64,000 bases of DNA from Thermoproteota archaeon (GCA_027492035.1 JAOZFT010000004.1:320001-384000); one strand, 5' to 3'. Positions 3,856 to 46,234 are shown, counted from the stretch's first letter. Notes: generated from the sequence alone by a model not told the origin. Program-made: numbers and translations.

Positions 3856-3954
3856 GCCGCCGTAGCTCAGCCGGTAGAGCGAGGGACTTGTAATCCCTTG
3901 GTCGAGGGTTCAAAAACCTGTGTGTTTCCCAGGTTGGGAATCCCTCCGGCGGCT
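3856..3954 (+). tRNA. tRNA-Thr(TGT), 26-nt intron at 59/60 (3915-3940)
   Basis: Cloverleaf; BHB TTCA-AAA-ACCTG...CAGGT-TGGG-AAT in T loop. Confidence 0.93.
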
Positions 3955-3969
3955 GTCCCTATCTCTCCA

Positions 3970-4060
3970 GGGGCCGTGGGGTAGCTAGGTCTAGCCTTCG
4001 AGACTTGGGCTCTCGAGAGTGTTCATCCGAGAAACCCCGGTTCAAATCCGGGCGGCCCCA
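3970..4060 (+). tRNA. tRNA-Pro(TGG), 16-nt intron at 45/46 (4018-4033)
   Basis: Cloverleaf; CTCG-AGA...CGAG-AAA relaxed BHB in variable region. Confidence 0.9.
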
Positions 4061-4188
4061 CCTATCTTCTTTTTGTAACTCCTTTGTACTTATTAATGTA
4101 TTACCGCGCTTTCCTATGGATTTTTAAACTCTACAACACCCTTTTTTATTGTCTCCTTGAACCTTGTAACTTTTTAAAGGGGTTTTTG

Positions 4189-5373
4189 ATGTCTCTGGAA
4201 GAAGGTGTAGAGAACGTTTTTGACAGGATTCCTTTGCAATCAAGCATTTTTAAAAGAAGAGAAGTAGTTAGGTTTGACTATGTTCCTTCACAGCTTCCTT
4301 ACAGGGATGCTGAGATAATGAAAATGGCACTTATCCTTTCATCTATTTTTAGAGAAGCTGTTCCCTCAAATATATTTATTTACGGAAAAACTGGGACAGG
4401 CAAAACCGCCGTTTCCATGTTTGTTAAAGATCAGTTGATAAAGAAAGCTAACCAACTTAAAAAACCTGTAATAGTGAATTACATAAATTGTAGGATAAGC
4501 GATACAAGCTATAGAATACTTACTCAGTTGACGCGTTTCTTGGACCCAAAAGTCCCCTTTATAGGTTTACCTTACGATGAAATTTATGAGAGGTTTATTT
4601 CAAAACTTGCTGAACATAACCTTTTCTTTGTTGTTTTTTTGGATGAAATTGATCAGCTGGCTGGGAAAGGGGACGATAAAATACTGTACTCCTTAATCAG
4701 GATAAACTCTGAGCTTTCAAATGGAGGCTTAAGCATAGTTGGAATAACTAATGATTTGAAATTTAAAGAAACTCTTGACCCAAGGATAGTAAGTGCTTTA
4801 AGTGATGAAGAAATCTTTTTTGAACCATATAATGCTGAGCAGCTCCTCCGCATCTTAAAAGACAGGGCTGAGGAAGCTTTCGTGGACGGGGCAATTGATG
4901 ATTCAATTTTACAGGTAATTGCTGCATATGCTGCTAGAGAAGGAGGTGATGCAAGAACTGCCATTGACTTGTTAAGGTTAGCTGGCGAATTAGCTGAAAG
5001 AGAAGGGGATGTTAAAGTCAAAATGAGACACGTTGAAAGGGCAAGAGTGAAAATGAAAGACGATCTGTTCTACAGAGCAATAACAACTCTTTCTCTGCAA
5101 AGTAAACTTGTTCTTTACTCTATAGCTCTGTTAACGAAAATAAATGAAGAAGTAATTACAACAGGGAAAGTTTACTCTACTTACTCCAGAATTTGTGAGA
5201 AAATCAATGTTGACAAGCTCTCCAAAAGAAGAGTTAGTGACATAATCAGGGAACTGGACATGATAGGATTAATTAGTTACAGAATCGGTCATGTGGCGCG
5301 TGGAAGAACAAAGAAAATTCATCTTGAATACAACCACAAAAAGATCTTAGAGCTGCTTAATGAGACAATTTAG
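4189..5373 (+). CDS. cdc6: Orc1/Cdc6 replication initiator
   Basis: YGKTGTGKT Walker A, LDEID Walker B, GDARTAIDLLR, C-terminal winged helix; ATG 4189 preferred. Confidence 0.95.
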   Translation: MSLEEGVENVFDRIPLQSSIFKRREVVRFDYVPSQLPYRDAEIMKMALILSSIFREAVPSNIFIYGKTGTGKTAVSMFVKDQLIKKANQLKKPVIVNYINCRISDTSYRILTQLTRFLDPKVPFIGLPYDEIYERFISKLAEHNLFFVVFLDEIDQLAGKGDDKILYSLIRINSELSNGGLSIVGITNDLKFKETLDPRIVSALSDEEIFFEPYNAEQLLRILKDRAEEAFVDGAIDDSILQVIAAYAAREGGDARTAIDLLRLAGELAEREGDVKVKMRHVERARVKMKDDLFYRAITTLSLQSKLVLYSIALLTKINEEVITTGKVYSTYSRICEKINVDKLSKRRVSDIIRELDMIGLISYRIGHVARGRTKKIHLEYNHKKILELLNETI

Positions 5374-5405
5374 TTTCTCCCTCCCATAAAGAAGTTTATT
5401 TGAAG

Positions 5406-6938
5406 CTACAGGAACCTCTTCCTAAAAATTTGTTGATTACCCATGTTAACTAGTTGCACTATTCCAGGGGTAGGGTTAATGTTCATTTCAGCTTGGTAAA
5501 TTGTTTTACGTTGCCATGTTCCGGAGGCTATACATGTTATCCCATTCACTCTCTTCTCTCCATTTATGTGTAGATGTCCCGTTTGCACAATGTCAGGAGG
5601 GTCCTCTATCAAATGAAAATCAAAACTTTCAGGAGCTAATGGTACATTAGAGCCGTAAAGAGGAGATAAGTGCCGGCTTATTAACATTTCATGAATAGCT
5701 TCCTCCGGCTTATTCCTTTTTCTTCTGGGTAAAACTGTGTTCCAATCCTCCAAACTCTTTCCGTGGTAAATAAGTACTTTATAACCGTCAATTACTACTC
5801 TTGAAGGGTTACCTAAAGAATATATTCGTCTCTCCTCCTTTAAAGGTTCGATGTAGTGGTGAATAATTGATGGTTGAGGTTCAGAAAGCCTAGTAGCGTC
5901 GTGGTTCCCAGGAACAAAAATTATATCCAAGTAATTAGGCACTTTCTTCATATATTTTATGAAAAGGTCATACTGCTTACCTATATCCCTCTCCATTAAT
6001 TCATTTTCTTGCCCAGGGTAAACACCCACTCCATCCACTAAATCCCCAGCAATTATTAAATATTTGATTTTAGAAACAATCCTTTTCTCTTTTTCGTTTC
6101 CCCTTTTCAGATTTAACCATTCTAAAAATTTTTGAAATTCTTTCTGAAGAAACGCTTTGCTTCCTATGTGTAGATCAGAAATAAAGGCCATATAAATTTC
6201 CCTCTCAAAAGTTTTCGGTTTGGTTCTAGGAGGCCCTGGAAAATAAATTACTTCAGCATTCAACACCCCCTTCTTCCATACCCTACCCTTAACCCCTATC
6301 ACTTGGTCAGGTATAATATGTGCTGCCTCAGCCATGTTCTTGTTTACTATGACTTTAATTGAACCAGTTAAATCTTCAAGTTCCAAGATATAGTTCCCTT
6401 TTAGGCTCTTCCTTTTTGAAAAAACCATTCCCACAATGGTTACTTGTTTTCTCTCCTGTGAGCTGTATTTCTGTATGTCTTCTATGTCTTCAACTTCTCT
6501 CCCTTCAATTTTAGACTCAATTATTTTTCTTAACCTAATGTATCTGTTAATAAATAACCGAATAAAATCTGTTATTTTCTCTCCTCGGTTTATGTACCTA
6601 CTTGGGTCAAGCTCAACCTCTATTTTCCCATCCCAATCCTTAGCAGTCTCTTCTTGCAAAAAACCTTCAGGTAAAAATGTTTCAATTTCCTCTCTACCCT
6701 TTTCTTTCCTTTCTTCTCTGTTTTCCTTCTTCAAAAGGTTTAGAATCTTTTCCACCAGTTCTATCTTAACCACTACACCCCTACTCTGCGACTCCTGCAG
6801 TTTTTCTATGAAGAAATCAATTATAGACTTTAGGTTCATTTCGGAAAAATTTTTTAGGAGAGGTAATGCTTCAGAAGGGAGTAAGTACCCTTTTTCAGCA
6901 GTTTTAGCAAGTAATTCCTTGATCTCTTTGTTTTGCAT
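5406..6938 (-). CDS. polB: DNA polymerase D small subunit DP1
   Basis: OB fold plus phosphoesterase motifs SDLHIGS, AGDLVDG, PGNHD, YHG, TGHLH; start moved out of tRNA-Leu. Confidence 0.95.
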   Translation of the reverse strand: MQNKEIKELLAKTAEKGYLLPSEALPLLKNFSEMNLKSIIDFFIEKLQESQSRGVVVKIELVEKILNLLKKENREERKEKGREEIETFLPEGFLQEETAKDWDGKIEVELDPSRYINRGEKITDFIRLFINRYIRLRKIIESKIEGREVEDIEDIQKYSSQERKQVTIVGMVFSKRKSLKGNYILELEDLTGSIKVIVNKNMAEAAHIIPDQVIGVKGRVWKKGVLNAEVIYFPGPPRTKPKTFEREIYMAFISDLHIGSKAFLQKEFQKFLEWLNLKRGNEKEKRIVSKIKYLIIAGDLVDGVGVYPGQENELMERDIGKQYDLFIKYMKKVPNYLDIIFVPGNHDATRLSEPQPSIIHHYIEPLKEERRIYSLGNPSRVVIDGYKVLIYHGKSLEDWNTVLPRRKRNKPEEAIHEMLISRHLSPLYGSNVPLAPESFDFHLIEDPPDIVQTGHLHINGEKRVNGITCIASGTWQRKTIYQAEMNINPTPGIVQLVNMGNQQIFRKRFL

Positions 6939-6973
6939 TTCTTTTTCCGCTTTCCTCTGTTTAAAAGAGCTTA

Positions 6974-7066
6974 TGCGGGGGGAGGGATTTGAACCCTCGC
7001 AGGACTGAACCACCAGATCTCTAATCCTTGAGTCTGGCGCCTTTAACCTGGCTCGGCAACCCCCGC
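6974..7066 (-). tRNA. tRNA-Leu(CAA), 8-nt insertion/intron at 37/38 (7019-7026)
   Basis: Type II cloverleaf; CCAGA CT CAA G[GATTAGAG]A TCTGG. Confidence 0.88.
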
Positions 7067-7068
7067 TT

Positions 7069-7551
7069 TCACTTCAAAATATCTAATAAAGCCACTTTTT
7101 CAATTAAAAATTTTAGGGTTTTATCCTTTAAAGTTTTACCCGAGAAGCCACTTCTTTCTAACTCCCCCTTCTTCACTTTAAACTCATTAAAGATTTCCTT
7201 TAAATCCCCTTTAAACTTTCTTTCAATTTTTGCTCCCTCATTTTCCAGAATCCTCTTGATTGTTTTGTTTTCCTTATTAGATAACGCCTCTTCCTTTGTC
7301 AGAAACACTATTCCAAGTGTTTCATTAAAGATTTTATTCTTCATTTTCGCTTCTTTTATTTGTCTCTCGCCGAATAAGTAACAAATAAACTCTATTTCCA
7401 TGTTTCTAGAAACGTTTGTTCCATCCTTAAAAGCTCTTAAGGTATGTAAAATTGAAGTTTCCACTTGTTTTTGGGACAAAACTATTTTAGGGTTTAAAAA
7501 AACTACTTTGCAATCAGTCCTCTTCTCTATTTCCTCTTTAACTTTAAACAT
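7069..7551 (-). CDS. cgi121: KEOPS subunit Cgi121 (start may be upstream, ATA 7623)
   Basis: LRAFKDGTNVSRNMEIEFICYLFGERQIKEA and C-terminal IEKVALL. Confidence 0.8.
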   Translation of the reverse strand: MFKVKEEIEKRTDCKVVFLNPKIVLSQKQVETSILHTLRAFKDGTNVSRNMEIEFICYLFGERQIKEAKMKNKIFNETLGIVFLTKEEALSNKENKTIKRILENEGAKIERKFKGDLKEIFNEFKVKKGELERSGFSGKTLKDKTLKFLIEKVALLDILK

Positions 7552-7653
7552 TCTTTTCTCTAATTCTTCTTGTTGTTTTTCTAAGCTGAAAACAATATAT
7601 TCAGGTGCATTAGAGAAGGGTATTCTTACCTCCTCCTTTCAAATATAATTAAA

Positions 7654-7747
7654 CGGGCCCGGCGGGATTTTCATCCATTATAGAATTTTGAACCCGCAAT
7701 CTTCGGCTCCGGAGGCCGAAATGTTGTCCTTTTTACACCACGGGCCC
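7654..7747 (-). tRNA. tRNA-Arg(CCG), 19-nt intron at 59/60 (7668-7686)
   Basis: Cloverleaf; BHB TTCA-AAA-TTC...GGA-TGAA-AAT. Confidence 0.92.
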
Positions 7748-7770
7748 ATAGGAAAAAGAGGAAATGGACG

Positions 7771-8448
7771 CTAAGTCACTTCAGTACCTACCTCCTTCTT
7801 CTCTAAAAGAATTTTTAAAATGTTTGTGGGGAAAGAACCGTTACAAATATGCAGCTTTATGGTTGATCTTTCCAGTACTTTTAAGGCTACCGGATCTAGA
7901 AGTTCATAACTTCCCGGTTGGAACTTTAGTTTTTCAAGAAGCAGTTTCAGGTCTTTATAAGTTATCTTACTTATTTTTTCAGCATTTTTCACTCTTCTAG
8001 GATCAGCTGTATAAACTCCATCGACGCTTGTACACTTTACAACGATATCAGCACCTAAAGCTTCCGCTAAAATAGCTGCTACAGCGTCTGTAGATTGTCC
8101 AGGGAACATTCCACCTGCAAAGCATATTTCGAAGCTTTTAAGTGCTAATTTCGCCTCCTCTATACTTTCAATATATTTCGGGTATACGTGATGCTTCAAG
8201 GCTGCTATGAAAACCATTGAATTCAATTTTGCTGCCTCCATACCTATTAAATCACAAAAAAAATTGTTTGCACCCAGTTTTTCAGCCATTTCTATTCTTT
8301 CACGTGCCAAACGTCCTCCACCCACTACAACAGCTATTTTCCATTTCTTTTTAATTAATTCATAAAATACCTCCACGTACCCTCTCAGAATTTCTGAGGC
8401 ATCTCTTTCTGAAAAAATGAAACCTCCAATCTTGACTACAGCTTTCAA
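7771..8448 (-). CDS. pyrH: UMP kinase
   Basis: VVKIGG, VVVGGGRLAR, PGQSTDAVAA, VDGVYTADP; TTG start after GGAGG. Confidence 0.95.
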   Translation of the reverse strand: MKAVVKIGGFIFSERDASEILRGYVEVFYELIKKKWKIAVVVGGGRLARERIEMAEKLGANNFFCDLIGMEAAKLNSMVFIAALKHHVYPKYIESIEEAKLALKSFEICFAGGMFPGQSTDAVAAILAEALGADIVVKCTSVDGVYTADPRRVKNAEKISKITYKDLKLLLEKLKFQPGSYELLDPVALKVLERSTIKLHICNGSFPTNILKILLEKKEVGTEVT

Positions 8449-8600
8449 ATAGGGCCTCCTCTTCAAAACCTTTTTATAAAGGAAGTACTTTTTAATTTCT
8501 TTTTTTCTTATTTCACTATATCTCATAAATTTTTTAAAAGGCACCCTTTAGGGGGAATGTAAAGATTTCCTCCCTGAGAAACTTTATAAGAGGTTTTGCA

Positions 8601-9848
8601 ATGAACAATTCCAAAGCAGAGAATGAGAGGTTGTTCAAGAAAAGAATAAAGGAGCTTTCAAAAATTAAGGGGTGGGGTACTGAATTAATTTCTCTCTATA
8701 TCCCTCCAGAAAAAAATTTAGCTGAAGTAACAAATTACTTAAAAAGGGAGTATAGTCAAGCTAGCAATATAAAGGACAAAATTACAAACAAAAACGTAAG
8801 AGCTTGCATAAAAACGATAATGCAAAGATTGAAAACCATCAATAAACCCCCTAAAAACGGTTTAGCTATATTTTGTGGAGCAATTCCAACTTCCAACTCC
8901 AGGGGAACGGAAAAAATAGAAATTTTTCTTATTGAACCCATAATGCCTATTAAAGCCTTCATTTATAGATGTGGAGGTTCATTTTTCCTTGAACCACTGG
9001 AAAAAATGGTTTTACCTAAAGAAATTTACGGCTTCATCGTCATAGACAGGGAAAAAGCTGTTATAGGATTAATTAAAGATGTTTATGTCCAGTTGCTTGG
9101 CAAATACACGTCAGGTGCTCCAGGGAAGCATAGTAAGGGAGGGCAATCCCAGCAAAGATTCAACAGGTTAAGGGAAAAAATAATTCTTGAATACTTTAGA
9201 AGAGTAGGGGAACATGCCACTTCCTTCTTTAGAGGAACCCCTAACTTGAAAGGGATCATAATAGGAGGACCTGGTTTTGCAAAACAGGACTTTCTTAGAG
9301 CAGATGCCTTACCTTCAGATTTAGAAAATAAAGTGGTTGGATTAATAGATATAGGTTACGGTGGTGAGGAAGGAGTTCGTGAACTGGTTTCAAAAGTTGG
9401 TGAAGTATTATCTGGCCTAGTAATTGTCAAGGAAAAGAAGTTAGTTCAAGATTTCTTCAAAAAAGTTGTTGAAGAACCAAATTTGGTAACTTACGGATTT
9501 AATAACGTGTTTGAGGCGTTGAGGAGAGAAGCAGTTGCCACTTTACTTCTTTCAGAAAATTTAAGCCTGCATAGAGTTAAGCTTACCTGTAGAACCTGTG
9601 GATACATAGATGAAAAAATATTAAATGGGAAAGAAATTAATGAAATCGTTACGAAGGGTGTACCCTGTCCAAAATGCAACAGTCCTCTCTATATAGAAGA
9701 AGAAAAGGACTTATTTGAAGAATTAATTGAAGAAGCTGGTAAACATAACGCTGAAGTGTTTATTGTATCTGCAGAAACAGAAGAAGGGAAACAATTTGCT
9801 TCAGCCTTCAATGGGGTTGGTGCTCTACTTAAATACCCCCTAACCTAA
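8601..9848 (+). CDS. prf1: Peptide chain release factor aRF1
   Basis: GTELISLYIP, ASNIKD, YRCG, GGQSQQRF. Confidence 0.97.
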   Translation: MNNSKAENERLFKKRIKELSKIKGWGTELISLYIPPEKNLAEVTNYLKREYSQASNIKDKITNKNVRACIKTIMQRLKTINKPPKNGLAIFCGAIPTSNSRGTEKIEIFLIEPIMPIKAFIYRCGGSFFLEPLEKMVLPKEIYGFIVIDREKAVIGLIKDVYVQLLGKYTSGAPGKHSKGGQSQQRFNRLREKIILEYFRRVGEHATSFFRGTPNLKGIIIGGPGFAKQDFLRADALPSDLENKVVGLIDIGYGGEEGVRELVSKVGEVLSGLVIVKEKKLVQDFFKKVVEEPNLVTYGFNNVFEALRREAVATLLLSENLSLHRVKLTCRTCGYIDEKILNGKEINEIVTKGVPCPKCNSPLYIEEEKDLFEELIEEAGKHNAEVFIVSAETEEGKQFASAFNGVGALLKYPLT

Positions 9849-9969
9849 AAACTCCTTATTGAGTTAAAGTAAGCCTACAAAATCTAGCTGGAAAAAGTAC
9901 AGGAACCGTAAAATTTAACTTTCCACAACAAAACCTCTCGCAACCGAAATACGGTTTTAAGACTCTATG

Positions 9970-10052
9970 TGGACCGGGCGGGATTCGAACCCGCGTTCAC
10001 TGCCTCTTTCTTCTATGCGAAGGCAGCGTGTTTCCACCTGCACCACCGGCCC
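9970..10052 (-). tRNA. tRNA-Ala(CGC), 10-nt intron at 37/38 (10006-10015)
   Basis: G3:U70 pair; CTGCC TT CGC A[TAGAAGAAAG]A GGCAG. Confidence 0.9.
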
Positions 10053-10205
10053 AACGAAAACATGCTAAAATAATGAATAACAAATTACGTTTTTAAACTT
10101 TGTCGCAAGGTTTTTAAAGCTAAAGCCTTTAATAAAAGAATGTATCTTCATCCTTATTAGGTACCTTTTACTTGCTACGTCAGTTCTAAAGATTCTTTTT
10201 TTCAT

Positions 10206-10299
<94 letters not shown>

Positions 10300-10462
10300 T
10301 TTTTCATTTTCATTTTTTTCAACGTTTTCAAACTTCTCCTTTACATCTCCATTTTTATATTTTTCTTTCTCTTTTAGAAAGTTCGGGGAAGGCAATAGTT
10401 TACCTTTCGTGATTTTCAGCCTTTCCTTTACAAAGGAGAGAACATGTAGGGAAAATGAAGCC

Positions 10463-11629
10463 ATGAACAGGGAAAACTTTACCGTTTGGTTTGATGTGGT
10501 GAATGCCCCTCATGCTTTACTTTTCTACCCCTTAATAAAGCTATTTTCTGAAACAGGGTTTAAAGTGCTTGTTACTACCAGGGAATATGGTTACTTAACG
10601 GGTTTACTTGATAACCTCGGTTTAGAGTATCACGTATTCTCCTGTCATGGTGGAAAGCAAAGGGGAAGGAAACTAGTTTTAAGTATGGAAAGAACGAGGG
10701 CATTGGGGAACTTCATAAAGAGTTACATGAGGGAAAGCGGTGAAATAAAGGTTTTGGTTTCAAAATCTTCACCGGAAGCAGTAGTCGCCGCTTCTGTTTT
10801 TAAAACCCCAATTGTGACAGCTTACGAGAACGAACATAACAGATACCAGTGTAAATTAACTTTCCCCCTTTCCAACTGTTTAGTTATTCCCTCCGTATTT
10901 CCTGTTGAAAAACTAATGGAGTTCGGGGCTGACGGCTACCAGGAAATCCATAAATTCTATGGAACATTTGAAGTTTCCCATGTGAAGTATTTCACTCCCT
11001 CTACTGAAGTTTTGCAGAGACTTAATCTTTCAGGGAAAGAAAAAATCGTGGTTGTGAGACCTGAACCGTACCAAAGCTCTTACTTCTCCATCGAAAAGAG
11101 GCCTCTCCTCGTTCCTCTTCTGAAAAAAATCCTTCCGATCCTGAAGGAATATGAAGCGGAGGTTTTTGTGTTTCCAAGGTCTCCCTCACAAGCTAAGCAA
11201 GTTAAAAACCTTTTTAAGGAAAGCGTTAAAGTGTTGAACAAACCTGTTGATTCATTAAGCTTAATGAATTATTCCAGTTTATTCTTGGGTGGAGGGGGAA
11301 CGATGACTCGTGAAGCTGCCTTATTAGGGGTCCCCACTCTCTCCTTTTACCCAGGCCCTCTCTTATCTGTGGACAAGTTGTTAATCAATGAAAAATTGGT
11401 ATTTCATTCAACTGAACCGAAGCAAATAATTTCCTTTACAAGAAGAGCTTTAGATGAAGGGAAGAAACGTAAACCTAACTTAGCTAAATTCACGGATCCT
11501 CTACAAATAATTAAAGATAAAATTTTGCAATATCTTTCACTTGGAGGAATTGAAGTAATGTTTGAAAAGAATTTACCTTCGTTTCCTTTTCTTCTCAAAA
11601 AACCTCTTCGTAACGTAATACCAAGTTGA
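10463..11629 (+). CDS. DUF354 family GT-B fold protein
   Basis: VWFDVVNAPH, VTTREY, VVVRPEP, GGGGTMTREAALLGVPT. Confidence 0.85.
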   Translation: MNRENFTVWFDVVNAPHALLFYPLIKLFSETGFKVLVTTREYGYLTGLLDNLGLEYHVFSCHGGKQRGRKLVLSMERTRALGNFIKSYMRESGEIKVLVSKSSPEAVVAASVFKTPIVTAYENEHNRYQCKLTFPLSNCLVIPSVFPVEKLMEFGADGYQEIHKFYGTFEVSHVKYFTPSTEVLQRLNLSGKEKIVVVRPEPYQSSYFSIEKRPLLVPLLKKILPILKEYEAEVFVFPRSPSQAKQVKNLFKESVKVLNKPVDSLSLMNYSSLFLGGGGTMTREAALLGVPTLSFYPGPLLSVDKLLINEKLVFHSTEPKQIISFTRRALDEGKKRKPNLAKFTDPLQIIKDKILQYLSLGGIEVMFEKNLPSFPFLLKKPLRNVIPS

Positions 11630-11812: not shown

Positions 11813-11826
11813 TTGTTTTCCCCTTT

Positions 11827-14078: not shown

Positions 14079-14211
14079 GCCGGGGTGGCTCAGGCGGTTA
14101 GTTTTTAAAAGAAACTAAAGCGCCAGACTCATAAACCTAGACGGAAAAAGTCGAGACATCTGGAGGTCGCGGGTTCGAACGGTCAGCTGCCTGAAAAACC
14201 CGCCCCCGGCA
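14079..14211 (+). tRNA. tRNA-Met(CAT), elongator type, introns at 22/23 (14102-14118), 37/38 (14134-14157), 59/60 (14180-14197)
   Basis: Removing three BHB-bounded inserts gives a standard cloverleaf with GCCGGGG acceptor. Confidence 0.92.
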
Positions 14212-14292: not shown

Positions 14293-14390
14293 AGCCCTGG
14301 GAGGGATTCGAACCCTCGGCCTGCTGCTTTCTAGTTCGTTACGAGGATCGGCTTCTTGAATCAGCCGCTCTACCGCTAAGCTACCAGGGC
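14293..14390 (-). tRNA. tRNA-Thr(CGT), introns at 30/31 (14347-14361) and 37/38 (14329-14339)
   Basis: Mature arm GCTGC CT CGT AA GCAGC; BHB CGGC-TGA-TTC..GAA-GCCG-ATC. Confidence 0.9.
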
Positions 14391-27997: not shown

Positions 27998-28082
27998 GCC
28001 GGGGTACTCCAGCCAGGTAGGAGGCGGGCCTGCTAAGCCCGTGGCTCTTGGAGCCTCGTGGGTTCAAATCCCACCCCCGGCG
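27998..28082 (+). tRNA. tRNA-Ser(GCT), no intron
   Basis: Type II cloverleaf, G73. Confidence 0.95.
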
Positions 28083-35135: not shown

Positions 35136-35224
35136 GCAGCCGTGGTCTAGCCAGGTAGGACGGGAGATTCATTGAACCCAAGCCCCCCAAGCTCCCAACG
35201 CGGGTTCAAATCCCGCCGGCTGCA
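35136..35224 (+). tRNA. tRNA-Gly(CCC), 16-nt intron at 30/31 (35167-35182), C33
   Basis: Mature arm GGAGC CC CCC AA GCTCC; BHB CGGG-AGA-TTC..GAA-CCCA-AGC. Confidence 0.87.
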
Positions 35225-35430: not shown

Positions 35431-35549
35431 GCGCCCGTCGTCTAGTCATGGCTTAAAATGTTTTTAAGCCGCTAAGGGACTAGGACACAGGCCCTCCAAG
35501 CCTGTAACGCGGGTTCAAATGAAGTAATCTGAAAATCCCGCCGGGCGCA
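35431..35549 (+). tRNA. tRNA-Gly(TCC), introns at 17a/18 (35449-35476) and 59/60 (35520-35535), C33
   Basis: Full BHB GTC-TAGT-CAT-GGCTTAAAA...TTTTAAGCC-GCTA-AGG-GAC; arm CAGGC CC TCC AA GCCTG. Confidence 0.9.
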
Positions 35550-37620: not shown

Positions 37621-37670
37621 AAAGGGTCCTAAATTACCCTTTCTTATTCAAAAATGTGGAGGTGTTACTT

Positions 37671-37826: not shown

Positions 37827-37849
37827 ACAAAGGGAAAAGGTTGAAAAAA

Positions 37850-38164: not shown

Positions 38165-38185
38165 TTCAAAGGTAGCTTACTCGCC

Positions 38186-38851: not shown

Positions 38852-38877
38852 TTTTTAAAAGTGAAGAGGGGATCTCA

Positions 38878-39117: not shown

Positions 39118-39142
39118 AAAAAAGAGGGTTGAGGAAGCTTTT

Positions 39143-39550
39143 ATGGCCGAAAAATTAGCAGAAAGGGAAATAATCCCACAAATCCAATATATACAAGCTT
39201 TGGTGGATTCCTTACAAGAAGAAATCCGAAGAATGAATATTCTAAGGAATCAGTTAAGCTTAACTTTGTTAGGTTTAAAAGAAGTGAAAATAAATAGAGA
39301 GACTCTGTCTTCAATAGGTTCAGGTGTTTACGCTTTCACTAAACCCCTCCATGAAGACAAGTTCCTAATAAATGTTGGAGCTAATGTTTATGTTACTAAG
39401 TCGAAAGAAAAAGCTTTGGAGTATCTTTCGAAACAATTAAATGAGGTAAATAAACTTATTCAAAAGTATCAAAGCCAACTTCTCAATTACATGAGCCTAC
39501 TGGATCAGTTGAACGCTAAACTTAGTCGATTGAGCCAGAAACAGACATAA
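39143..39550 (+). CDS. pfdA: Prefoldin alpha
   Basis: Coiled coils around IGSGVY / LINVGANVYV. Confidence 0.9.
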   Translation: MAEKLAEREIIPQIQYIQALVDSLQEEIRRMNILRNQLSLTLLGLKEVKINRETLSSIGSGVYAFTKPLHEDKFLINVGANVYVTKSKEKALEYLSKQLNEVNKLIQKYQSQLLNYMSLLDQLNAKLSRLSQKQT

Positions 39551-39561
39551 AGTGTTTCCTT

Positions 39562-40464
39562 TCAAATAATCTCTTCAATTATTTTTTCAGGTTCATAACG
39601 GATAAAGTCCATATATCCCTGTCCACACCCTAAAAACAAAATAGGTTTCTTTAGCGTATTTGCAACTGTGAGAATAACTCCTCCCTTGTCAGTGGCATCT
39701 ATTTTGGTAATTACTGCACAGTCTACTTGGATAGCTTCATCGAAAAATTTGCACTGTACCTCTGCATCGTTTCCCGCTAACCCGTCAATAACCAAAACTT
39801 TTAAATCTGGATTGTTAACTCTGACAACCTTTTTCAGTTCTTCAAGTAAGTTCTCGTTTGAATGAGCTCTACCCGCTGTATCAGCACATACAACATCAAA
39901 TCTTTTAGTCCTGGCTCTTTCTATAGCGTCATATATAACAGCTGCACTGTCCGACCCTCTTCTTTGTTTAACAACTTGTACTTTGACGGCTTCTGCATAT
40001 TTACACATCTGTTCTATCCCTGCAGCACGGAATGTGTCAGCTGCTGCAATTAACACCCTGAACCCCTTCTCTTTCAGGTATTTTGCTGTTTTCGCTACAG
40101 ATAATGATTTCCCTACTCCATTGAAGCCTACAAAAATAATTACGTAAGGTTTTCCCCCCTTTTTACCCACTTCACTAGGTAAATCTATCTCTGGTGTTTG
40201 TAGAATCCTTAACAGCTCCTCCCTCATAATATTAAAAACAGCTTTTTCTCTTTTACCCCTGGGAACCTTCAAATCCACAATCTTTCTTTTTAAACACTCT
40301 CTTAATTCTTTACATGTACCATAGGAGACCCCTGCTGAATAAAGTTTTATTTCCACTTCATCAAATATTTCCTCAAATTTCTTTTCAGTAATTTTCTCTT
40401 CTAGTAAAACCTTAATCAGTTTCTCTTTGAATGAAATTAAGGGATTCTTTAACTCTTTCCACAA
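39562..40464 (-). CDS. ftsY: SRP receptor FtsY
   Basis: GFNGVGKS, DTFRAAG, DTAGR, TKID, GQGY. Confidence 0.96.
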   Translation of the reverse strand: MWKELKNPLISFKEKLIKVLLEEKITEKKFEEIFDEVEIKLYSAGVSYGTCKELRECLKRKIVDLKVPRGKREKAVFNIMREELLRILQTPEIDLPSEVGKKGGKPYVIIFVGFNGVGKSLSVAKTAKYLKEKGFRVLIAAADTFRAAGIEQMCKYAEAVKVQVVKQRRGSDSAAVIYDAIERARTKRFDVVCADTAGRAHSNENLLEELKKVVRVNNPDLKVLVIDGLAGNDAEVQCKFFDEAIQVDCAVITKIDATDKGGVILTVANTLKKPILFLGCGQGYMDFIRYEPEKIIEEII

Positions 40465-40575
40465 TTTTCAGTCCTCTTTTCCTTTTTCTTTAAATTTTTA
40501 GAAAGGTATACTGAGAGGAGGAAAAATTTAAAAATTTTGTAACATTACCTCTCCATTTAAAGGGTGTTTCAATCT

Positions 40576-41505
40576 ATGTTGAAAGGAAAAGATTTTCTTT
40601 CTTTAAAAGATTTTTCAATAGAAGAAATCACTAAGCTATTGAGGTTATCAATCTCTTTTAAGCAAGAATTCCTAACCGGTAAAAGAGTAAGTAACATCTT
40701 AAAAAATAAATCTTTAGCTTTAGTTTTTGAAAAACCCTCTACCCGGACAAGGGTTTCCTTTCAAGTTGCAATAAATCAGCTTTCTGGTTACTCAATTTAT
40801 TTAGATAAGTCTTCCACCCAGTTGAGCAGGGGTGAAACGGTCAGCGACACAGGGAAGGTTTTAAGTAGGTACGTAGACGGCATAATAGCTAGGGTCTATA
40901 GTCACCAAACACTACTTGAATTGGCTAATTCTTCCACTGTGCCTGTGATAAATGCTTTATCAGATCTTTACCACCCCTGTCAAGCTTTAGCCGACTTGTT
41001 AACAATTATTGAAAAAAAGGGGAGGACGAAAGGAATAAAAATGGCTTATGTGGGGGACGGTAACAACGTTTGCAACTCTTTAATGATAGCTTCCTCTAAA
41101 ACAGGTATAAACTTAATGGTAGCCACTCCCCCCGGCTATGAACCTAAACAAGAAGTTATTGAGTTAGCAAATAAATTCTCAAGCGAGACAGGATCTAAAA
41201 TTAAGGTATCAAATTCTCCAGAGGAGGCAGTTACTGATGCAGAAGTGATTTACACAGATGTATGGGTAAGCATGGGTCAAGAAGAAGAAAAAGATAAAAG
41301 ATTGAGGGATTTTCAAGGGTTTCAGGTAAATAATGATTTGCTGAAATTTGCGAAAAAGGATTTTATTTTTATGCACTGCCTTCCAGCCCATAGAGGGTTA
41401 GAAGTGTCTTCAGACGTTTTAGACGACCCCTTACACTCTGTTGTTTTTGACCAAGCCGAGAACCGTCTACATACAGAAAAGGCAATTTTAAGTCTCTTGG
41501 TCTAG
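40576..41505 (+). CDS. argF: Ornithine carbamoyltransferase
   Basis: STRTR, HPCQ, DVWVSMG, HCLP. Confidence 0.96.
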   Translation: MLKGKDFLSLKDFSIEEITKLLRLSISFKQEFLTGKRVSNILKNKSLALVFEKPSTRTRVSFQVAINQLSGYSIYLDKSSTQLSRGETVSDTGKVLSRYVDGIIARVYSHQTLLELANSSTVPVINALSDLYHPCQALADLLTIIEKKGRTKGIKMAYVGDGNNVCNSLMIASSKTGINLMVATPPGYEPKQEVIELANKFSSETGSKIKVSNSPEEAVTDAEVIYTDVWVSMGQEEEKDKRLRDFQGFQVNNDLLKFAKKDFIFMHCLPAHRGLEVSSDVLDDPLHSVVFDQAENRLHTEKAILSLLV

Positions 41506-41684
41506 AACTTTCTTTATGTCGAAAGAAACATAAACAATTGTCAACCTATAATCTGTTTGATACTTGTTAAAAATTTAAAAAGAAGCCAACCCTTAAAAGT
41601 TTGAAACGTTTCACTTTTTAAAAAGAAGTTTCAAGAACTGAAACTACAATTCGGAAACCGATGAATTTTTGATGGTGGAAAATA

Positions 41685-42746
41685 TTGAGAGAAAATCAGA
41701 AGAAATATGGTGTCACAAATAAAGAATTAGAGGAAATACTGAGTGAAAGCCGGGCGAAGCTGGTGGTTGTAGGTGTAGGAGGAGCAGGTGGAAACGTAGT
41801 TGACTTAATCAAAAAAAATAAACTGGAAGGGGTTGAAACAATCAGCATAAACACTGACGCACAAGACCTTCTTAAAATAAATGCTGACACTAAAATTTTG
41901 ATAGGGAAAAGAATAACTGGAGGTTTAGGAGCTGGCAGTGACCCAATTATTGGTGAAGCTGCGGTAAAGGAGGATGAAGAAGAAATAAGGGAGGCATTGG
42001 GAGGAGCAGACCTCACTTTCATAGTAGCTGGTTTAGGGGGTGGAACAGGCACAGGTGCAAGCCCTACAATTGCATCTTTAGCTAGGGAATCCGGTTCAGT
42101 TGTGATGACCATAGTTTTCTTCCCTTTCTCTGTAGAGGGAGCTAAAAGGCAGGAAATAGCTTTGAACAGTTTAAAAAACTTTTTAACAAATTCTGACACT
42201 TTCGTATTGATTCCCAACGACAAAATTCTTGAACTTAAACCAGGTATCTCCTTGAAAGAAGGCATCTACTACGCCAATAAAGCAGTGACAGACTTAATAA
42301 AAAACTTGGTTGAAATAATTGAAGCCCCCACCACCATAAATGTTGACTTCGCTGATTTAAGGACGGTGCTTGAAGAAGGGGGAATATCCACTTTTACTTC
42401 ACTTGAAATTAATGACTTTAATAAGTTAGAAGAAATAACTAAGCAAGTACTGATTAACCCCCTCATAGAAGTTGAAACCTCCGGAGGAAAAAAGGCGCTT
42501 TTATTTATTAAAACTTCGTCAAGTGTTGAAATAGAAAAAATCAGCAGTTTACTTGAAAGCGTAGTTTCCCAGCTTGATCCAAACGCCCAAGTAATATGGG
42601 GAGCAAACATCGTGGAAGATGACAGCTCCAAAACAAAAGTGTTCAGCATAATCACAGGCGTTAAACTTTTAAACATAAAGATTGAGGAGGTAGTTGCTAA
42701 ACCTAAACCTAGCATAGATTTAGGGATCGACCTTGAATCTCTTTAA
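41685..42746 (+). CDS. ftsZ: Cell division GTPase FtsZ
   Basis: GVGGAGGN, NTDAQDL, GLGGGTGTG, INVDFAD. Confidence 0.96.
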   Translation: MRENQKKYGVTNKELEEILSESRAKLVVVGVGGAGGNVVDLIKKNKLEGVETISINTDAQDLLKINADTKILIGKRITGGLGAGSDPIIGEAAVKEDEEEIREALGGADLTFIVAGLGGGTGTGASPTIASLARESGSVVMTIVFFPFSVEGAKRQEIALNSLKNFLTNSDTFVLIPNDKILELKPGISLKEGIYYANKAVTDLIKNLVEIIEAPTTINVDFADLRTVLEEGGISTFTSLEINDFNKLEEITKQVLINPLIEVETSGGKKALLFIKTSSSVEIEKISSLLESVVSQLDPNAQVIWGANIVEDDSSKTKVFSIITGVKLLNIKIEEVVAKPKPSIDLGIDLESL

Positions 42747-42767
42747 AAATTTAAGAGGGTTTTAAAG

Positions 42768-42956
42768 ATGTCTCTACCTAACAAAATTAAAGATTTCATT
42801 GTTCAATGTGAAAGAGCTCTGAAAAAAGCTTCTAAACCTGCAAGGAATGAATTTCTTAAAATTTCTGGGATTTGCCTTTTAGGATTAACTTTGCTTGGAG
42901 TGATAGGGTTAACTATTAGGTTAATAGCTAATTTACTTAGCGGTTCACCTGTGTGA
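42768..42956 (+). CDS. secE: SecE/Sec61 gamma
   Basis: RALKKASKPARNEF plus TM helix. Confidence 0.92.
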   Translation: MSLPNKIKDFIVQCERALKKASKPARNEFLKISGICLLGLTLLGVIGLTIRLIANLLSGSPV

Positions 42957-42963
42957 ATGTTCT

Positions 42964-43425
42964 ATGCCTAAAAAGAATAATTTTTATTTGGTAAGGGTAA
43001 CTAAGTCACAAGAAAACACAACTTCTTTAATACTTGCAAAAAGAGCTGAAAGAATGCGTGGAAAAATAAAATCCATAATTTCATTAGATGAGCTGCCGGG
43101 GTATGTCATAGTTGAAGCCAACTCCATAAACGAAGTTGATAAATTAATAACTAACGTTCCACACGTAAAAGGGAGAGTAGCCACCTTTCTTCAAGAGGAA
43201 GAAGTTGCTAAGTTATTAAAAAGAAAATCATACATTGAGGAACTGGAAATAGGGGATGTTGTTAAGTTAACAACTGGTCCATTTGAAGGTGAGAAGGCAA
43301 GAGTAGTGTCTATAAGTAAAAGTAGGGATGAGGTTACTGTGGAACTGTTTGAATCATTGGTTCCAGTCGCAATTACTGTGCCAGGTGACGCGGTCAAGAA
43401 GGAAAAACCTAAGGAGCAGGAATAA
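42964..43425 (+). CDS. spt5: Transcription elongation factor Spt5
   Basis: LPGYVIVEA NGN domain; GDVVKLTTGPFEG KOW. Confidence 0.95.
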   Translation: MPKKNNFYLVRVTKSQENTTSLILAKRAERMRGKIKSIISLDELPGYVIVEANSINEVDKLITNVPHVKGRVATFLQEEEVAKLLKRKSYIEELEIGDVVKLTTGPFEGEKARVVSISKSRDEVTVELFESLVPVAITVPGDAVKKEKPKEQE

Positions 43426-43586
43426 TCCTTGTTTAAAATGTGAAGAAAATTTTTCTTCTCCTTTAAAAGGGGAATGCTTTTTTGAAAGGAGAAGATTCAT
43501 TTTTTCCGGGATTTGGAAAATAAAAGGGTTCGTCAATAAATGGGAGTGTTTCGCAGGAGAGGAATTTTTAAGAAAGTGACTTGGGA

Positions 43587-44051
43587 ATGGAGAACATAAA
43601 AACAGTTAAATTGTTGGTGGAAGCAGGCAAAGCTTCAGCAGGTCCACCTTTAGGCCCTGCATTGGGCCAAATGAAACTAAACGTTAGTAAAGTAGTTGAA
43701 GAAATAAACAATAAAACAAAGAGTTTTCTGGGGATGAAGATCCCTGTCACTCTTTACGTAAATATGAAAACGCGTGAATATGAAATAGAAGTGGGTTTGC
43801 CTACCACTTCAGCTCTTCTCAAAAAAGAAATAAGTGAATCTGGTAAAGAAAAAAACGTTGAATTAAAGAAAGTAATTAAAATAGCTAAGGAAAAAATGGG
43901 GGACATGTTCGTTTCAGACTTAAAAGCGGCTGTTAAAACCGTGTTAGGTGTAGCTGTTTCAATGGGGGTTAAAGTTGACGGTAAATCCCCAAAGAAAGTT
44001 ATTAAAGAAATTAATGAAGGGTTACATGATTCTCTTCTAGAACTAGTTTAA
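43587..44051 (+). CDS. rpl11: Ribosomal protein L11
   Basis: GKASAGPPLGPALG. Confidence 0.96.
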   Translation: MENIKTVKLLVEAGKASAGPPLGPALGQMKLNVSKVVEEINNKTKSFLGMKIPVTLYVNMKTREYEIEVGLPTTSALLKKEISESGKEKNVELKKVIKIAKEKMGDMFVSDLKAAVKTVLGVAVSMGVKVDGKSPKKVIKEINEGLHDSLLELV

Positions 44052-44084
44052 ATCTAGGTGAGAAAAAAAATTGAGGTGTTAATT

Positions 44085-44729
44085 TTGAGCCTTGGCGAGG
44101 AAGCACTGAAAAATGCAGTGGAGGAGGCTAAGAAAAATTCAAAGGAAAGGAACTTCACCGAAAGCATCGACTTAACAGTGGTGCTTAAAGGGGTAGATAT
44201 GAGAAAGACCACCAATAGGTTAAGTCAAATCTTGGAACTTCCATACAAACTTAATAAGAAAGTTGAAATTTGTGTAGTGGCTAAAGGAGACTTGGCTTTA
44301 AGAGCAAAGAAAGCAGGAGTTTTTACTCTTGACCCTGACGAAATCTCTTCCCTAGCCTCTAACCCTAGAAAAGCCAAGGAATTTGTGAAAAAATTCAACT
44401 TCTTTATTGTTCAATCCAATTTTATGCCTACTATAGGGAAATACTTAGGTAGGTTCTTAGGCCCAAGAGGAAAAACACCCATACCTTTCCCACCCACAGG
44501 AGACATAGAAAAAAGAATAGAGTCTCTTAGAAAATCAGTCAATTTATCCCTTAAGAAACAACCAGTTCTTCATGTTCCAGTCGGAACAAAAAACATGAAA
44601 ACAGAGGAAATAGTCAAAAACATTAAAGCAGTGCTTTCTCTTCTATCCACTAAGTTCGATCTGAAACATAACTTAAGAACCGTTCTAGTTAAAACAACAA
44701 TGGGAAAACCTGTTAAAATCTACCCGTAA
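44085..44729 (+). CDS. rpl1: Ribosomal protein L1
   Basis: RNFTESIDL, LGPRGK, KTTMGKP; TTG after GAGGTG. Confidence 0.96.
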   Translation: MSLGEEALKNAVEEAKKNSKERNFTESIDLTVVLKGVDMRKTTNRLSQILELPYKLNKKVEICVVAKGDLALRAKKAGVFTLDPDEISSLASNPRKAKEFVKKFNFFIVQSNFMPTIGKYLGRFLGPRGKTPIPFPPTGDIEKRIESLRKSVNLSLKKQPVLHVPVGTKNMKTEEIVKNIKAVLSLLSTKFDLKHNLRTVLVKTTMGKPVKIYP

Positions 44730-44740
44730 GGTGAAAATTT

Positions 44741-45619
44741 TTGGAAAAAATCAAAAGAGAAATACTTAACAGAAAACACTCCCCACTTAAGGAAATGAAG
44801 GTAAAAGAACTTGAAAAATTAATCAACGAATATGATTCATTACTGATAGCAACTTATACAGGGTTCACTTCCAACTACTTTAAAGAAACAAGGAGAAGGT
44901 TAAAAGGTAAAGCTAGAATTAAGGTTTCAAAGAATACCCTGCTTCAAGTTGCGCTGTCCAAAGTTAAGCCTAATTATAAAGAAAAATTAAGTGAGTACAT
45001 GCATGGGCAGAATGTTTTTTTCTTCACAAATCTGCACCCCACTAAACTCTACTCTTACTTGAAAGAAAAACCAATGTCAATGCCTGTCAAAGCTGGGGAA
45101 ATAGCAACTGAAGACATCTCCGTGCCAGAAGGAATAACCGACCTTACACCCGGACCAATAATGACTAAACTAAGTGACCTAGGTGTAAAAACAAAAATTC
45201 AAGGGGGGAAAATATATGTTTTAGAGGAAAAAGTGATCGTGAGAAAGGGAGAAAAAGTTTCTAAGAATGCTGCAGATGTACTAGCTGCCCTGGGCATAAA
45301 GCCGGTGAAAGCTGTTTTTAAAGTTAAAGCAGCTATAGATAGAGAAGGAGTAATATATCCTCCTGAAGCAGTTGAAATAACCCCTGACTTGTTGAAGAAA
45401 AAAATACTGGAAGTTTTCAAAGAAAACTTAACTTTAGCTGTCTCTCAGGGAATACCCACCAAGTATTCAGCCCCTATACTAGTCTTCCAGGCATACCTTA
45501 AAAGCCTGAATCTTTCTGTCCAGCTTTCGATCCCTACAAAAAACAATGCTCCCTTCATAATAATGAAGGCGTTTGCCATAGCCAAAGAATTGGCTAGAAA
45601 CATACCCAGAAAGGAGTGA
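44741..45619 (+). CDS. rpl10: Ribosomal protein L10/P0
   Basis: VSKNTL, GEIATEDI, PGPI, LGIKP. Confidence 0.95.
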   Translation: MEKIKREILNRKHSPLKEMKVKELEKLINEYDSLLIATYTGFTSNYFKETRRRLKGKARIKVSKNTLLQVALSKVKPNYKEKLSEYMHGQNVFFFTNLHPTKLYSYLKEKPMSMPVKAGEIATEDISVPEGITDLTPGPIMTKLSDLGVKTKIQGGKIYVLEEKVIVRKGEKVSKNAADVLAALGIKPVKAVFKVKAAIDREGVIYPPEAVEITPDLLKKKILEVFKENLTLAVSQGIPTKYSAPILVFQAYLKSLNLSVQLSIPTKNNAPFIIMKAFAIAKELARNIPRKE

Positions 45620-45747
45620 ATCACGTGTTTTCCTCTTTTACTAAAAATTTCTCCTTTTAAAATTTCTTCAAAGTGCCTTCTATAAAGAAAAGTTTTTAAA
45701 TTCCTCTCCTGTGAAAGAAAAACAAGTAAGGAAATGGAGGTGAAAAA

Positions 45748-46059
45748 ATGAAGCAAAGTTATATTTACGCAGCTCTGCTACTTCACGAAGAAAAAAAGGA
45801 AATAACTCCAGACTCTATAATGGCTGTTTTGAAAGCTGCAGGAGCTGACCCGGAGGAAGCACTAGCAAAATCTGTAGCTGAATCCTTAAAAGACGTAGAT
45901 ATAGACAAAATAATAACTGAAGCTGCAACATTCACCCCTGTACAAGCCACTATGGCGACAACACCACAAGCCAAACCTGAAAAAACCGAGGAAAAAGAGA
46001 AAAAAGAGGAAAAGAAGGCTGAAGAATCAGTAGAGGGGTTAGCTGCCCTATTCGGGTAA
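45748..46059 (+). CDS. rpl12: Ribosomal stalk protein P1/L12
   Basis: YIYAALLLH...EGLAALFG. Confidence 0.96.
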   Translation: MKQSYIYAALLLHEEKKEITPDSIMAVLKAAGADPEEALAKSVAESLKDVDIDKIITEAATFTPVQATMATTPQAKPEKTEEKEKKEEKKAEESVEGLAALFG

Positions 46060-46147
46060 AAAAAGTAAATCCTGTTAATGGATTTCCAGCAAGGCTTGCC
46101 TTTCCAAAAATTATTTAGTTCTTCATCTTTGCTGCGCCTATGAAAAA

Positions 46148-46234
46148 TGGGCCCGGCGGGATTTGAACCCGCGACCACCGGCTTTCCCCATTATTTAGAA
46201 GGCCGGTGCGCTATCCTGACTGCGCTACGAGCCC
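46148..46234 (-). tRNA. tRNA-Arg(TCT), 12-nt intron at 37/38 (46184-46195)
   Basis: CCGGC CT TCT A[AATAATGGGGAA]A GCCGG. Confidence 0.92.

Follow-up and report, generated by a model that had tools for sequence, protein, structure and literature searches.

Heavy tRNA intron load alongside a predicted single-chain, loop-bearing splicing endonuclease in a Thermoproteota archaeon

Introduction

Twelve tRNA genes in a 64,000-nucleotide stretch of DNA from a hot-vent Thermoproteota archaeon (GCA_027492035.1 JAOZFT010000004.1:320001-384000) raise the question of whether genes so heavily interrupted are functional and, if so, which enzyme would splice their transcripts. The whole stretch is called the window here. 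It corresponds to G000:C9:320001-384000, that is, to part of contig C9 (G+C content of about 37%) of the 1.87-Mb assembly G000, which has 42 contigs and is 93.3% complete. An earlier note, made from the window's sequence, had counted 15 introns in 11 of the 12 tRNAs and had linked this density to the Thermoproteales, to a particular class of splicing endonuclease, and to an independent intron expansion. Here, the tRNA genes and the endonuclease were analyzed genome-wide and compared with relatives, of which G001 belongs to the same family and G002 to the same order, the remaining genomes of the collection being assigned only to the same phylum. Published sources are cited by accession number and for the portions that bear on this analysis.

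In our assessment, the interrupted loci are very probably functional tRNA genes with bulge-helix-bulge (BHB) introns that are spliced by a single fused, loop-bearing EndA. The interest of the system lies mainly in the pairing of extreme tRNA disruption with a natural single-chain endonuclease that bears such a loop.

Results

tRNA genes and introns in the window

The tRNA genes were located with a script that takes every 7-bp acceptor pairing as a starting point and fits the three remaining arms (T, D, and anticodon) to the cloverleaf. Removable inserts of 7 to 130 nt were permitted at a cost, which was lowered when their ends fitted the BHB motif, scored as two bulges of 3 nt on either side of a 4-bp helix, each cut behind its second nucleotide. 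Without the BHB term, all 12 window loci were recovered, with the positions of the anticodon-loop introns tied; an over-weighted BHB term invented introns and was replaced by the final weighting. Within the anticodon loop, where the cloverleaf by itself does not separate the alternatives, the exact cut sites were therefore fixed with the BHB rule.

The threading script returned the same genes, introns, coordinates (3856 to 46234), and positions as the earlier note. The six intron positions were 37/38 (five introns, in Leu-CAA, Ala-CGC, Met, Thr-CGT, and Arg-TCT), 59/60 (four, in Thr-TGT, Arg-CCG, Met, and Gly-TCC), 22/23 (two, in Ile-GAT and Met), 30/31 (two, in Thr-CGT and Gly-CCC), 45/46 (Pro-TGG), and 17a/18 (Gly-TCC). 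Cutting after the second bulge nucleotide restored the cloverleaf at 12 of 12 loci, as had been proposed, and a by-eye reading of G+C-rich islands and T-arm-like motifs led to the same loci. The features are listed below with their script scores; H x/4 gives the paired positions in the central helix, and the lengths of the outer and inner helices are in base pairs.

3856..3954, plus strand: tRNA-Thr(TGT) with one intron; score 24.8; partial Rfam match at 3863-3921
3915..3940, plus strand: Thr-TGT intron at 59/60, 26 nt, strict hBHBh'; H 4/4, outer 5, inner 5
3970..4060, plus strand: tRNA-Pro(TGG) with one intron; score 23.2; matched by ARAGORN and Rfam
4018..4033, plus strand: Pro-TGG intron at 45/46 (variable loop), 16 nt; H 4/4, no outer helix; similar intron at the same site in G002
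6974..7066, minus strand: tRNA-Leu(CAA) with one intron; score 23.3
7019..7026, minus strand: Leu-CAA intron at 37/38, 8 nt, bulge-helix-loop; H 3/4, outer 6; 12-nt same-site intron in the G001 orthologue
7654..7747, minus strand: tRNA-Arg(CCG) with one intron; score 24.4; Rfam 26.6 bits, below the gathering score
7668..7686, minus strand: Arg-CCG intron at 59/60, 19 nt; H 4/4, helices 5 and 3; T-arm uninterrupted in the G002 orthologue
9970..10052, minus strand: tRNA-Ala(CGC) with one intron; score 23.3; G3:U70 (G3:T70 in the DNA) read directly
10006..10015, minus strand: Ala-CGC intron at 37/38, 10 nt; H 3/4, outer 6; same-site introns in G001 (16 nt) and G002 (11 nt)
10206..10299, plus strand: tRNA-Ile(GAT) with one intron; score 23.8; partial Rfam match
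10230..10248, plus strand: Ile-GAT intron at 22/23, 19 nt, curated placement; H 4/4, inner 3; D-arm uninterrupted in the G002 orthologue
14079..14211, plus strand: elongator tRNA-Met(CAT) with three introns; score 23.6
14102..14118, plus strand: Met intron at 22/23, 17 nt; H 4/4, helices 2 and 3
14134..14157, plus strand: Met intron at 37/38, 24 nt; H 3/4, helices 5 and 2
14180..14197, plus strand: Met intron at 59/60, 18 nt; H 4/4, helices 5 and 3
14293..14390, minus strand: tRNA-Thr(CGT) with two introns; score 23.2
14347..14361, minus strand: Thr-CGT intron at 30/31, 15 nt, strict hBHBh'; H 4/4, helices 3 and 2; anticodon stem uninterrupted in the G001 orthologue
14329..14339, minus strand: Thr-CGT intron at 37/38, 11 nt; H 3/4
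27998..28082, plus strand: tRNA-Ser(GCT) without an intron; score 25.0; matched by ARAGORN and Rfam
35136..35224, plus strand: tRNA-Gly(CCC) with one intron and C33; score 22.6; '???' in ARAGORN by default, SeC with -i
35167..35182, plus strand: Gly-CCC intron at 30/31, 16 nt; H 3/4, inner 3
35431..35549, plus strand: tRNA-Gly(TCC) with two introns and C33; score 23.2; missed by ARAGORN and Rfam
35449..35476, plus strand: Gly-TCC intron at 17a/18 (D-loop), 28 nt, strict; H 4/4, helices 3 and 6; 12-nt intron at the same site in G002
35520..35535, plus strand: Gly-TCC intron at 59/60, 16 nt; H 4/4, helices 5 and 2; T-arm uninterrupted in the G002 orthologue
46148..46234, minus strand: tRNA-Arg(TCT) with one intron; score 24.4; Rfam 61.5 bits
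46184..46195, minus strand: Arg-TCT intron at 37/38, 12 nt; H 4/4, outer 6; 10-nt intron at the same site in G002

With the final script, the 12 loci scored 22.6 to 25.0, the best other match in the window scored 18.3, and the best score in the reversed or complemented window was 18.2. A control of 920 kb of reversed or complemented contig C9 reached 20.3, compared with 21.8 to 25.0 for all 47 tRNA loci of the genome. Further genome loci scoring 18.5 to 20.3 were dropped as noise because the controls climb to 20.3. For Ile-GAT, the script favored a 17-nt insert that left a 12-nt D-loop; the 19-nt placement at 22/23 was chosen instead because its central helix is fully paired (4/4) and the length of the spliced D-arm equals that of the uninterrupted G002 orthologue.

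Default ARAGORN recovered 5 of the 12 window genes. The Rfam tRNA model at its gathering score matched 9, two of them only in part, with one more below the threshold, and elongator Met, Gly-TCC, and Arg-CCG were absent from both sets of calls. Over the whole genome, the default ARAGORN run yielded 18 calls, of which 4 disagreed with the script on the anticodon, and the -i run yielded 23, with 9 such disagreements that included 'Pyl' and 'SeC'. The expectation that standard callers would miss or mis-call several of these genes was therefore borne out for ARAGORN and Rfam. With either tool alone, over half of the tRNA genes in these genomes go missing or receive a wrong label, and estimates of completeness and decoding capacity would be distorted as a result.

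Two minor features of the window tRNAs were noted. Position 33, which is near-universally U in tRNA, is C in both Gly-CCC and Gly-TCC; the anticodon loop of the latter reads CCTCCAA, with no intron near it, and the G002 orthologue of Gly-TCC has T33. In addition, the longest open reading frame (ORF) for the PolD small subunit (window 5406-7013, minus strand) overlaps tRNA-Leu(CAA) by 40 nt, and the real start codon of this gene probably lies further downstream.

Genome-wide tRNA set and motif statistics

A scan of all contigs, followed by refinement, gave 47 tRNA genes that cover all 46 standard archaeal anticodons, each present once except Gly-GCC, which occurs twice. This exact complement serves as a strong global check, since any intron misplaced within the anticodon loop would leave an anticodon missing or represented twice. 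The second Gly-GCC, which might be genuine or derive from contamination, is intron-free, has a different body, and lies at C40:515-589 on a 2.4-kb contig.

After three hand curations, 52 introns were assigned to 37 of the 47 genes, or 1.1 per gene, with lengths of 8 to 54 nt (median, 17). This agrees with the Thermoproteales-like density that had been claimed: it exceeds the mean of that order, 0.84 introns per tRNA gene, and falls short of the highest count, 71 introns in 46 genes, of Pyrobaculum calidifontis (PMC8450103). Twenty-eight introns lie in the anticodon loop and 24 are non-canonical; after Sprinzl conversion, the latter fall in the D-arm from 16/17 to 22/23 (n = 11), at 30/31 (n = 3), at 45/46 (n = 2), and at 59/60 (n = 8). 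Positions 22/23, 30/31, 45/46, and 59/60 are on the published list of non-canonical intron sites (PMC4090602).

The central 4-bp helix was fully paired at 31 of the 52 called sites and had at least three of its four pairs at 49. In 500 intron shuffles, full pairing occurred at a mean of 1.3 sites (maximum, 6) at the called position and, with the best of seven slides taken to allow for the choice among tied placements, at a mean of 5.9 (maximum, 14). When the 3' register was moved by 1 to 4 nt, only 0 to 4 of the 52 helices remained fully paired. Among the non-canonical introns, whose position is almost completely fixed by the cloverleaf, 20 of 24 had 4/4. The spliced tRNAs also displayed the expected identity features: G3:U70 in Ala, C1:G72 in Tyr, and A1:U72 in the initiator. 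After removal of the 30/31 intron, the outer helix of the 37/38 intron lengthened from 1 to 5 bp in Thr-CGT and from 3 to 6 bp in Leu-TAA, which suggests an order of cuts.

The codon AUA is predicted to be read by a tRNA-Ile(TAT) outside the window (C9:315948-316068), which has a 46-nt intron at 37/38; only two CAT genes are present. In G002, the intron of this gene measures 50 nt. A search of G000 (93% complete) for the TiaS_FLD domain came up empty, whereas four archaeal control genomes gave a match. A tRNA-Ile(UAU) without Ile2(CAU) has been reported for Korarchaeum cryptofilum and Nanoarchaeum equitans (PMC6000648, PMC8450103) as well as for ARMAN (PMC3239211).

Pro-TGG and Pro-CGG, the latter elsewhere on C9, share an identical 45/46 intron (16/16). 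Comparisons between other tRNA pairs all scored 12 or less, within a shuffle range of up to 12, and carried no transposition signature. The earlier note had suggested that introns might shield tRNA genes from integration; a search for 20-mers of the tRNA genes at other places in the assembly found none, which is neutral on this point.

The tRNA genes are clustered: 45 of 47 lie within about 430 kb of C9 (30 to 459 kb) of the 1.87-Mb assembly. In the single-contig genome G005, 40 of 45 tRNA matches lie between 1.0 and 1.59 Mb.

Intron turnover among relatives

In G001 and G002, 26 stretches around Rfam tRNA matches were processed with the same script, which gave 22 and 20 tRNA genes, respectively, of which only 3 and 4 were intron-free. 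Thirty-eight orthologue pairs were compared; four loci were left out as mis-solved (L020:1607, L025:350, L026:784, and L043:824). The spliced sequences were 78 to 96% identical and the introns differed. For canonical introns of G000, 20 of the 21 compared had a counterpart of other length and sequence in the relative. By contrast, 11 of the 12 non-canonical sites compared were uninterrupted in the relative, which reads straight across the predicted junction, and the relatives hold 24 introns where G000 has none. Judged from sequence, this comparison provides the best non-RNA support for reading the inserts as introns and for their assigned boundaries, and it points to fast intron turnover between sister genomes.

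The likeliest of the improbable alternatives is an error among the shortest inserts. If some of the anticodon-loop inserts of 8 to 12 nt were cut elsewhere or lay in impaired genes, the intron count or the anticodons would differ from those given here. Room for such errors exists: 3 of the 28 anticodon-loop introns have central helices of 2/4 and 14 have 3/4, the cloverleaf alone was tied within the loop, and the tied top solution for Leu-TAA gave another anticodon. Nevertheless, the called anticodons make up the exact standard set with Gly-GCC as the sole duplicate, same-site introns of other length recur in nearly all orthologue comparisons, and the identity features of Ala, Tyr, and the initiator fit. 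We regard this explanation as improbable.

Two loci among the relatives stand out. By manual reading of the script output, the tRNA-Pro(TGG) of G001 (L020:1607-1756, minus strand) apparently has four introns, at 18/19 (29 nt), 32/33 (11 nt, central helix 4/4), 37/38 (14 nt), and 59/60 (21 nt); archaeal tRNA genes hold up to three introns according to the tRNAscan-SE 2.0 paper (PMC8450103). In G002, a locus with a Pro-type body and a 45/46 intron like that of G000 (L043:824-913, minus strand) has the anticodon CAG (Leu), which might reflect mutation of a gene copy, misassembly, or reassignment of the tRNA.

For the wider phylum, Rfam tRNA matches of at least 90 nt, which cannot be intron-free, were used as a proxy.

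G005: 4 of 45 matches long
G009: 10 of 43 matches long
G012: 11 of 44 matches long
G026: 9 of 37 matches long, plus more matches of 84 to 89 nt than nine type II tRNAs explain
G020: matches mostly long, weak, or partial

All five genomes encode a fused, loop-bearing EndA. By this sequence proxy, a high intron load spans several families of the phylum, beyond the order of the window, and would be either ancestral with loss in one family or the product of several gains.

A single fused splicing endonuclease

Both Pfam domains of EndA were searched genome-wide and matched only one ORF, a single frame of 379 codons (378 amino acids) at G000:C9:442896-444029, 59 kb beyond the window. The domain order is N-C-N-C, that is, two tandem units. 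The C half matched the solved alpha subunits of Sulfolobus tokodaii, Aeropyrum pernix, and Pyrobaculum aerophilum with E values of 4e-35 to 6e-27 and the two-unit enzyme of Archaeoglobus fulgidus more weakly (E value, 2e-15); the N half weakly matched the beta subunits of P. aerophilum and N. equitans. The catalytic Tyr-His-Lys is kept in the C unit in 11 of 11 aligned phylum relatives, whereas in the N unit Leu replaces Tyr and Ser replaces His. K232, in the stretch 'RKPKS', takes the aligned position of K44 in the A. pernix alpha subunit (numbering as counted along the alignment), and the 'KP' of this loop is kept in 11 of 11 relatives. EndA is thus predicted to consist of an inactive, beta-like N unit and a catalytic C unit with the lysine of the Crenarchaea-specific loop (CSL), a residue tied to the cleavage of relaxed motifs (PMC5829648).

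The AlphaFold model of EndA (mean predicted local distance difference test [pLDDT] score, 90.4) was closest to 5x89, a Methanopyrus kandleri beta-alpha fusion (template modeling [TM] score, 0.82), followed by 3p1y, an A. fulgidus chimera with a grafted CSL (TM score, 0.74); the agreement with two-unit structures extends along the entire model. It superposed poorly on the ARMAN-2 enzyme 4fz2 (TM score, 0.60; root mean square deviation, 9 Å), to which only residues 208 to 364 align by sequence. Folded as two copies, EndA scored 0.74 versus 0.00 for the best control, a mark that 20 of 30 solved pairs attained, as did 1 of 23 single chains, with at least 90% of contacts agreeing between runs and a partner pLDDT of at least 85; this pass may only reflect likeness, because similar complexes are solved. 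An RtcB ligase is encoded on the same contig (C9:453481-454788, 578 bits).

These results modify the expectation that such a density needs a broad-specificity (alpha-beta)2 or epsilon2 endonuclease. All four domain matches fall in one frame, with none elsewhere in the genome, which speaks against separate alpha and beta subunits; only two full units are present and the match to 4fz2 is poor, which speaks against an epsilon2 enzyme. The functional side of the expectation, a catalytic unit with a specificity loop, holds.

Another or additional endonuclease, with separate alpha and beta subunits or of the epsilon type, could in principle be encoded in the unassembled 7% and make the non-canonical cuts, leaving the canonical introns and rRNA to the fused EndA. 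The incompleteness of the genome leaves space for it, and only (alpha-beta)2 and epsilon2 enzymes have been classed as broad-specificity (PMC5829648). On the other side, the lone EndA frame of G000 is the rule in its phylum, where 40 of 41 genomes, two of them nearly closed, gave an EndA match and each exactly one, and the fused EndA already bears the loop lysine of broad specificity. A second enzyme is therefore unlikely, marginally more so than miscalled short inserts.

Least tenable, to the point of being scarcely credible, is that the interrupted genes are decaying pseudogenes or artifacts of assembly or binning, with functional intron-free copies elsewhere: the intron-free Gly-GCC and the crowding of 45 of 47 genes on one contig might hint at this, but the stems remain paired, the exons, but not the introns, closely match those of orthologues in two further assemblies, the same gene structure recurs in the independent assemblies G001 and G002, and no other duplicate anticodon occurs in 1.87 Mb.

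Discussion

Proposed route of splicing

Splicing of functional tRNA precursors by the fused EndA remains the reading that we favor. Each precursor junction would fold into two 3-nt bulges around a 4-bp helix or into a relaxed form, in which one flanking helix is missing or a loop takes the place of one bulge. An EndA homodimer would most likely cleave each bulge behind its second nucleotide, leaving RtcB to ligate the exons. In Thr-CGT and Leu-TAA, the stem intron would probably be excised first, letting the anticodon stem form for the second cut. We infer the splicing itself, the broad specificity of EndA, and the order of cuts from sequence, and the homodimer from the structural model. The loop-bearing enzyme would permit introns outside the anticodon loop, and such introns may have been gained and lost quickly in this lineage and its sister genera, to give about 1.1 per gene.

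Several points weigh against this reading. The introns of 8 to 12 nt are very short, and a literature search on EndA handling of an 8-nt intron or on the shortest archaeal tRNA intron gave nothing useful. As a class, the anticodon-loop introns are weaker, with 4/4 in 11 of 28 beside the 14 at 3/4 and 3 at 2/4; an inner helix of at least 2 bp is missing in 22 of 28, as expected for very short bulge-helix-loop substrates. Their cut sites were picked partly by the BHB score itself, and three placements were set by hand genome-wide (Leu-TAA, Ile-GAT, and Ser-GGA). The affinity of the catalytic unit to (alpha-beta)2 enzymes was judged by E values, and a genome that is 93% complete has room for a second endonuclease gene. 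Finally, the enzyme permits the load but does not explain it, because G005 has a loop-bearing EndA and yet only 4 long matches among 45.

Comparison with known systems

The tRNA genes of G000 resemble those of the Thermoproteales in their intron hot spots, in having up to three introns per gene and more than one on average, and in the rapid turnover between relatives. Unlike the Thermoproteales, the G000 lineage has PolD, FtsZ, and tRNA-Ile(UAU), and its genome gave no match to the TiaS domain; its EndA is one fused chain, whereas theirs has separate alpha and beta subunits. The introns differ as well: many in G000 are only 8 to 13 nt, and families of similar introns across different tRNAs were not seen, whereas intron transposition is described for the Thermoproteales (PMC4090602).

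The closest match in enzyme type is K. cryptofilum. Fujishima et al. (2011) described it as the sole non-euryarchaeon with a two-unit enzyme, whose catalytic unit groups with (alpha-beta)2 enzymes and bears the specific loop, and proposed a possible new class of homodimer with broad specificity (PMC3239211). EndA of G000 likewise has two tandem units and the specific loop; by E values, its catalytic unit appears closest to the alpha subunit of (alpha-beta)2 enzymes. Korarchaeum also shares the tRNA-Ile(UAU) in place of Ile2(CAU), and its tRNAs hold non-canonical and multiple introns (PMC3239211). The fused, one-gene, loop-bearing type has so far been noted only in Korarchaeum; a 2025 structural paper lists four EndA types, and the relevant portion of its text leaves the korarchaeal type unmentioned (PMC12397907). 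G000 differs from the likely Korarchaeum counterpart G005 in its load, with 37 of 47 genes interrupted, and its EndA is only 35 to 40% identical to the enzymes of G005's family.

Among solved structures, EndA resembles 5x89 (fMKA) and 3p1y and would be a natural form of the combination of a fused chain and a loop. Both of those are laboratory constructs, unlike EndA of G000, and the loop is absent from fMKA, which is inefficient at cleaving relaxed motifs (PMC5829648). The epsilon2 enzyme of ARMAN-2 (Micrarchaeota) is similar in being a single-gene homodimer with a specificity loop that occurs together with many 59/60 and other non-canonical introns, and dissimilar in its three-unit architecture, alphaN-alpha-betaC, and its different loop (ASL).

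The rule of the field is that heavy tRNA disruption goes with (alpha-beta)2 or epsilon2 enzymes; here it goes with a natural fusion whose activity is only predicted. This combination offers a ready test of whether the loop lysine or the subunit make-up sets the substrate range. In addition, nearly all non-canonical sites vary among the three sister genomes, which makes these genomes good material for a study of intron gain and loss.

Position of the lineage

The window encodes both the PolD small subunit and FtsZ, in agreement with the description of the host as a PolD/FtsZ-bearing lineage. The EndA type, the tRNA-Ile(UAU), the lack of a TiaS_FLD match, and the make-up of the phylum sample suggest a place in or near the Korarchaeota. 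In homology searches, the closest ABCE1 proteins were 53 to 57% identical and carried the names Bathyarchaeota, Bathyarchaeia, Asgard, or Nanoarchaeia; among genome contigs, ABCE1 led only to 51%-identical MAGs labelled Bathyarchaeota, and EndA led to no relative. The Wood-Ljungdahl pathway is present in deep-branching vent Korarchaeia (PMC10667645). The proposal of an independent intron expansion can be upheld in part: the lineage is far from the Thermoproteales, as the proposal implied, but the high load is not confined to the lineage's order. No description of its intron load was found in the literature, and the main texts of two Korarchaeota genomics papers, supplements apart, contain neither 'tRNA' nor 'intron'; within that scope, the load is treated here as undocumented.

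Taken as a whole, a fuller scenario is somewhat favored, with less assurance than the splicing reading itself. In it, a Korarchaeota-like, deep-branching vent lineage would have reached a Thermoproteales-level load independently, with a single-chain beta-alpha EndA that bears the CSL, turnover of non-canonical introns, a four-intron tRNA-Pro in a sister genome, and 8-nt introns processed as bulge-helix-loop substrates.

Other RNA features

Rfam identified 16S rRNA, the 5' end of 23S rRNA, a separate 5S rRNA, and signal recognition particle RNA in the window, and its proteins include Cdc6, the PolD small subunit, primase, aRF1, and an FtsZ homologue. Compared with the Rfam model, the 16S gene has no large insert. 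A perfect 18-bp helix joins the 16S 5' flank to the 16S-23S spacer (window 775-960 and 2450-2500, minus strand) and is likely a processing stem; by eye, no BHB motif could be placed in it.

The only intron sequence conservation noticed between genomes was found in tRNA-Trp, whose introns of 54 nt in G000 (C9:222772-222899) and 58 nt in G001 (L022:1200-1388) have in common a 13-nt block with a box-C-like GATGA. This block recalls the box C/D guide in the tRNA-Trp intron of Haloferax (PMC4090602).

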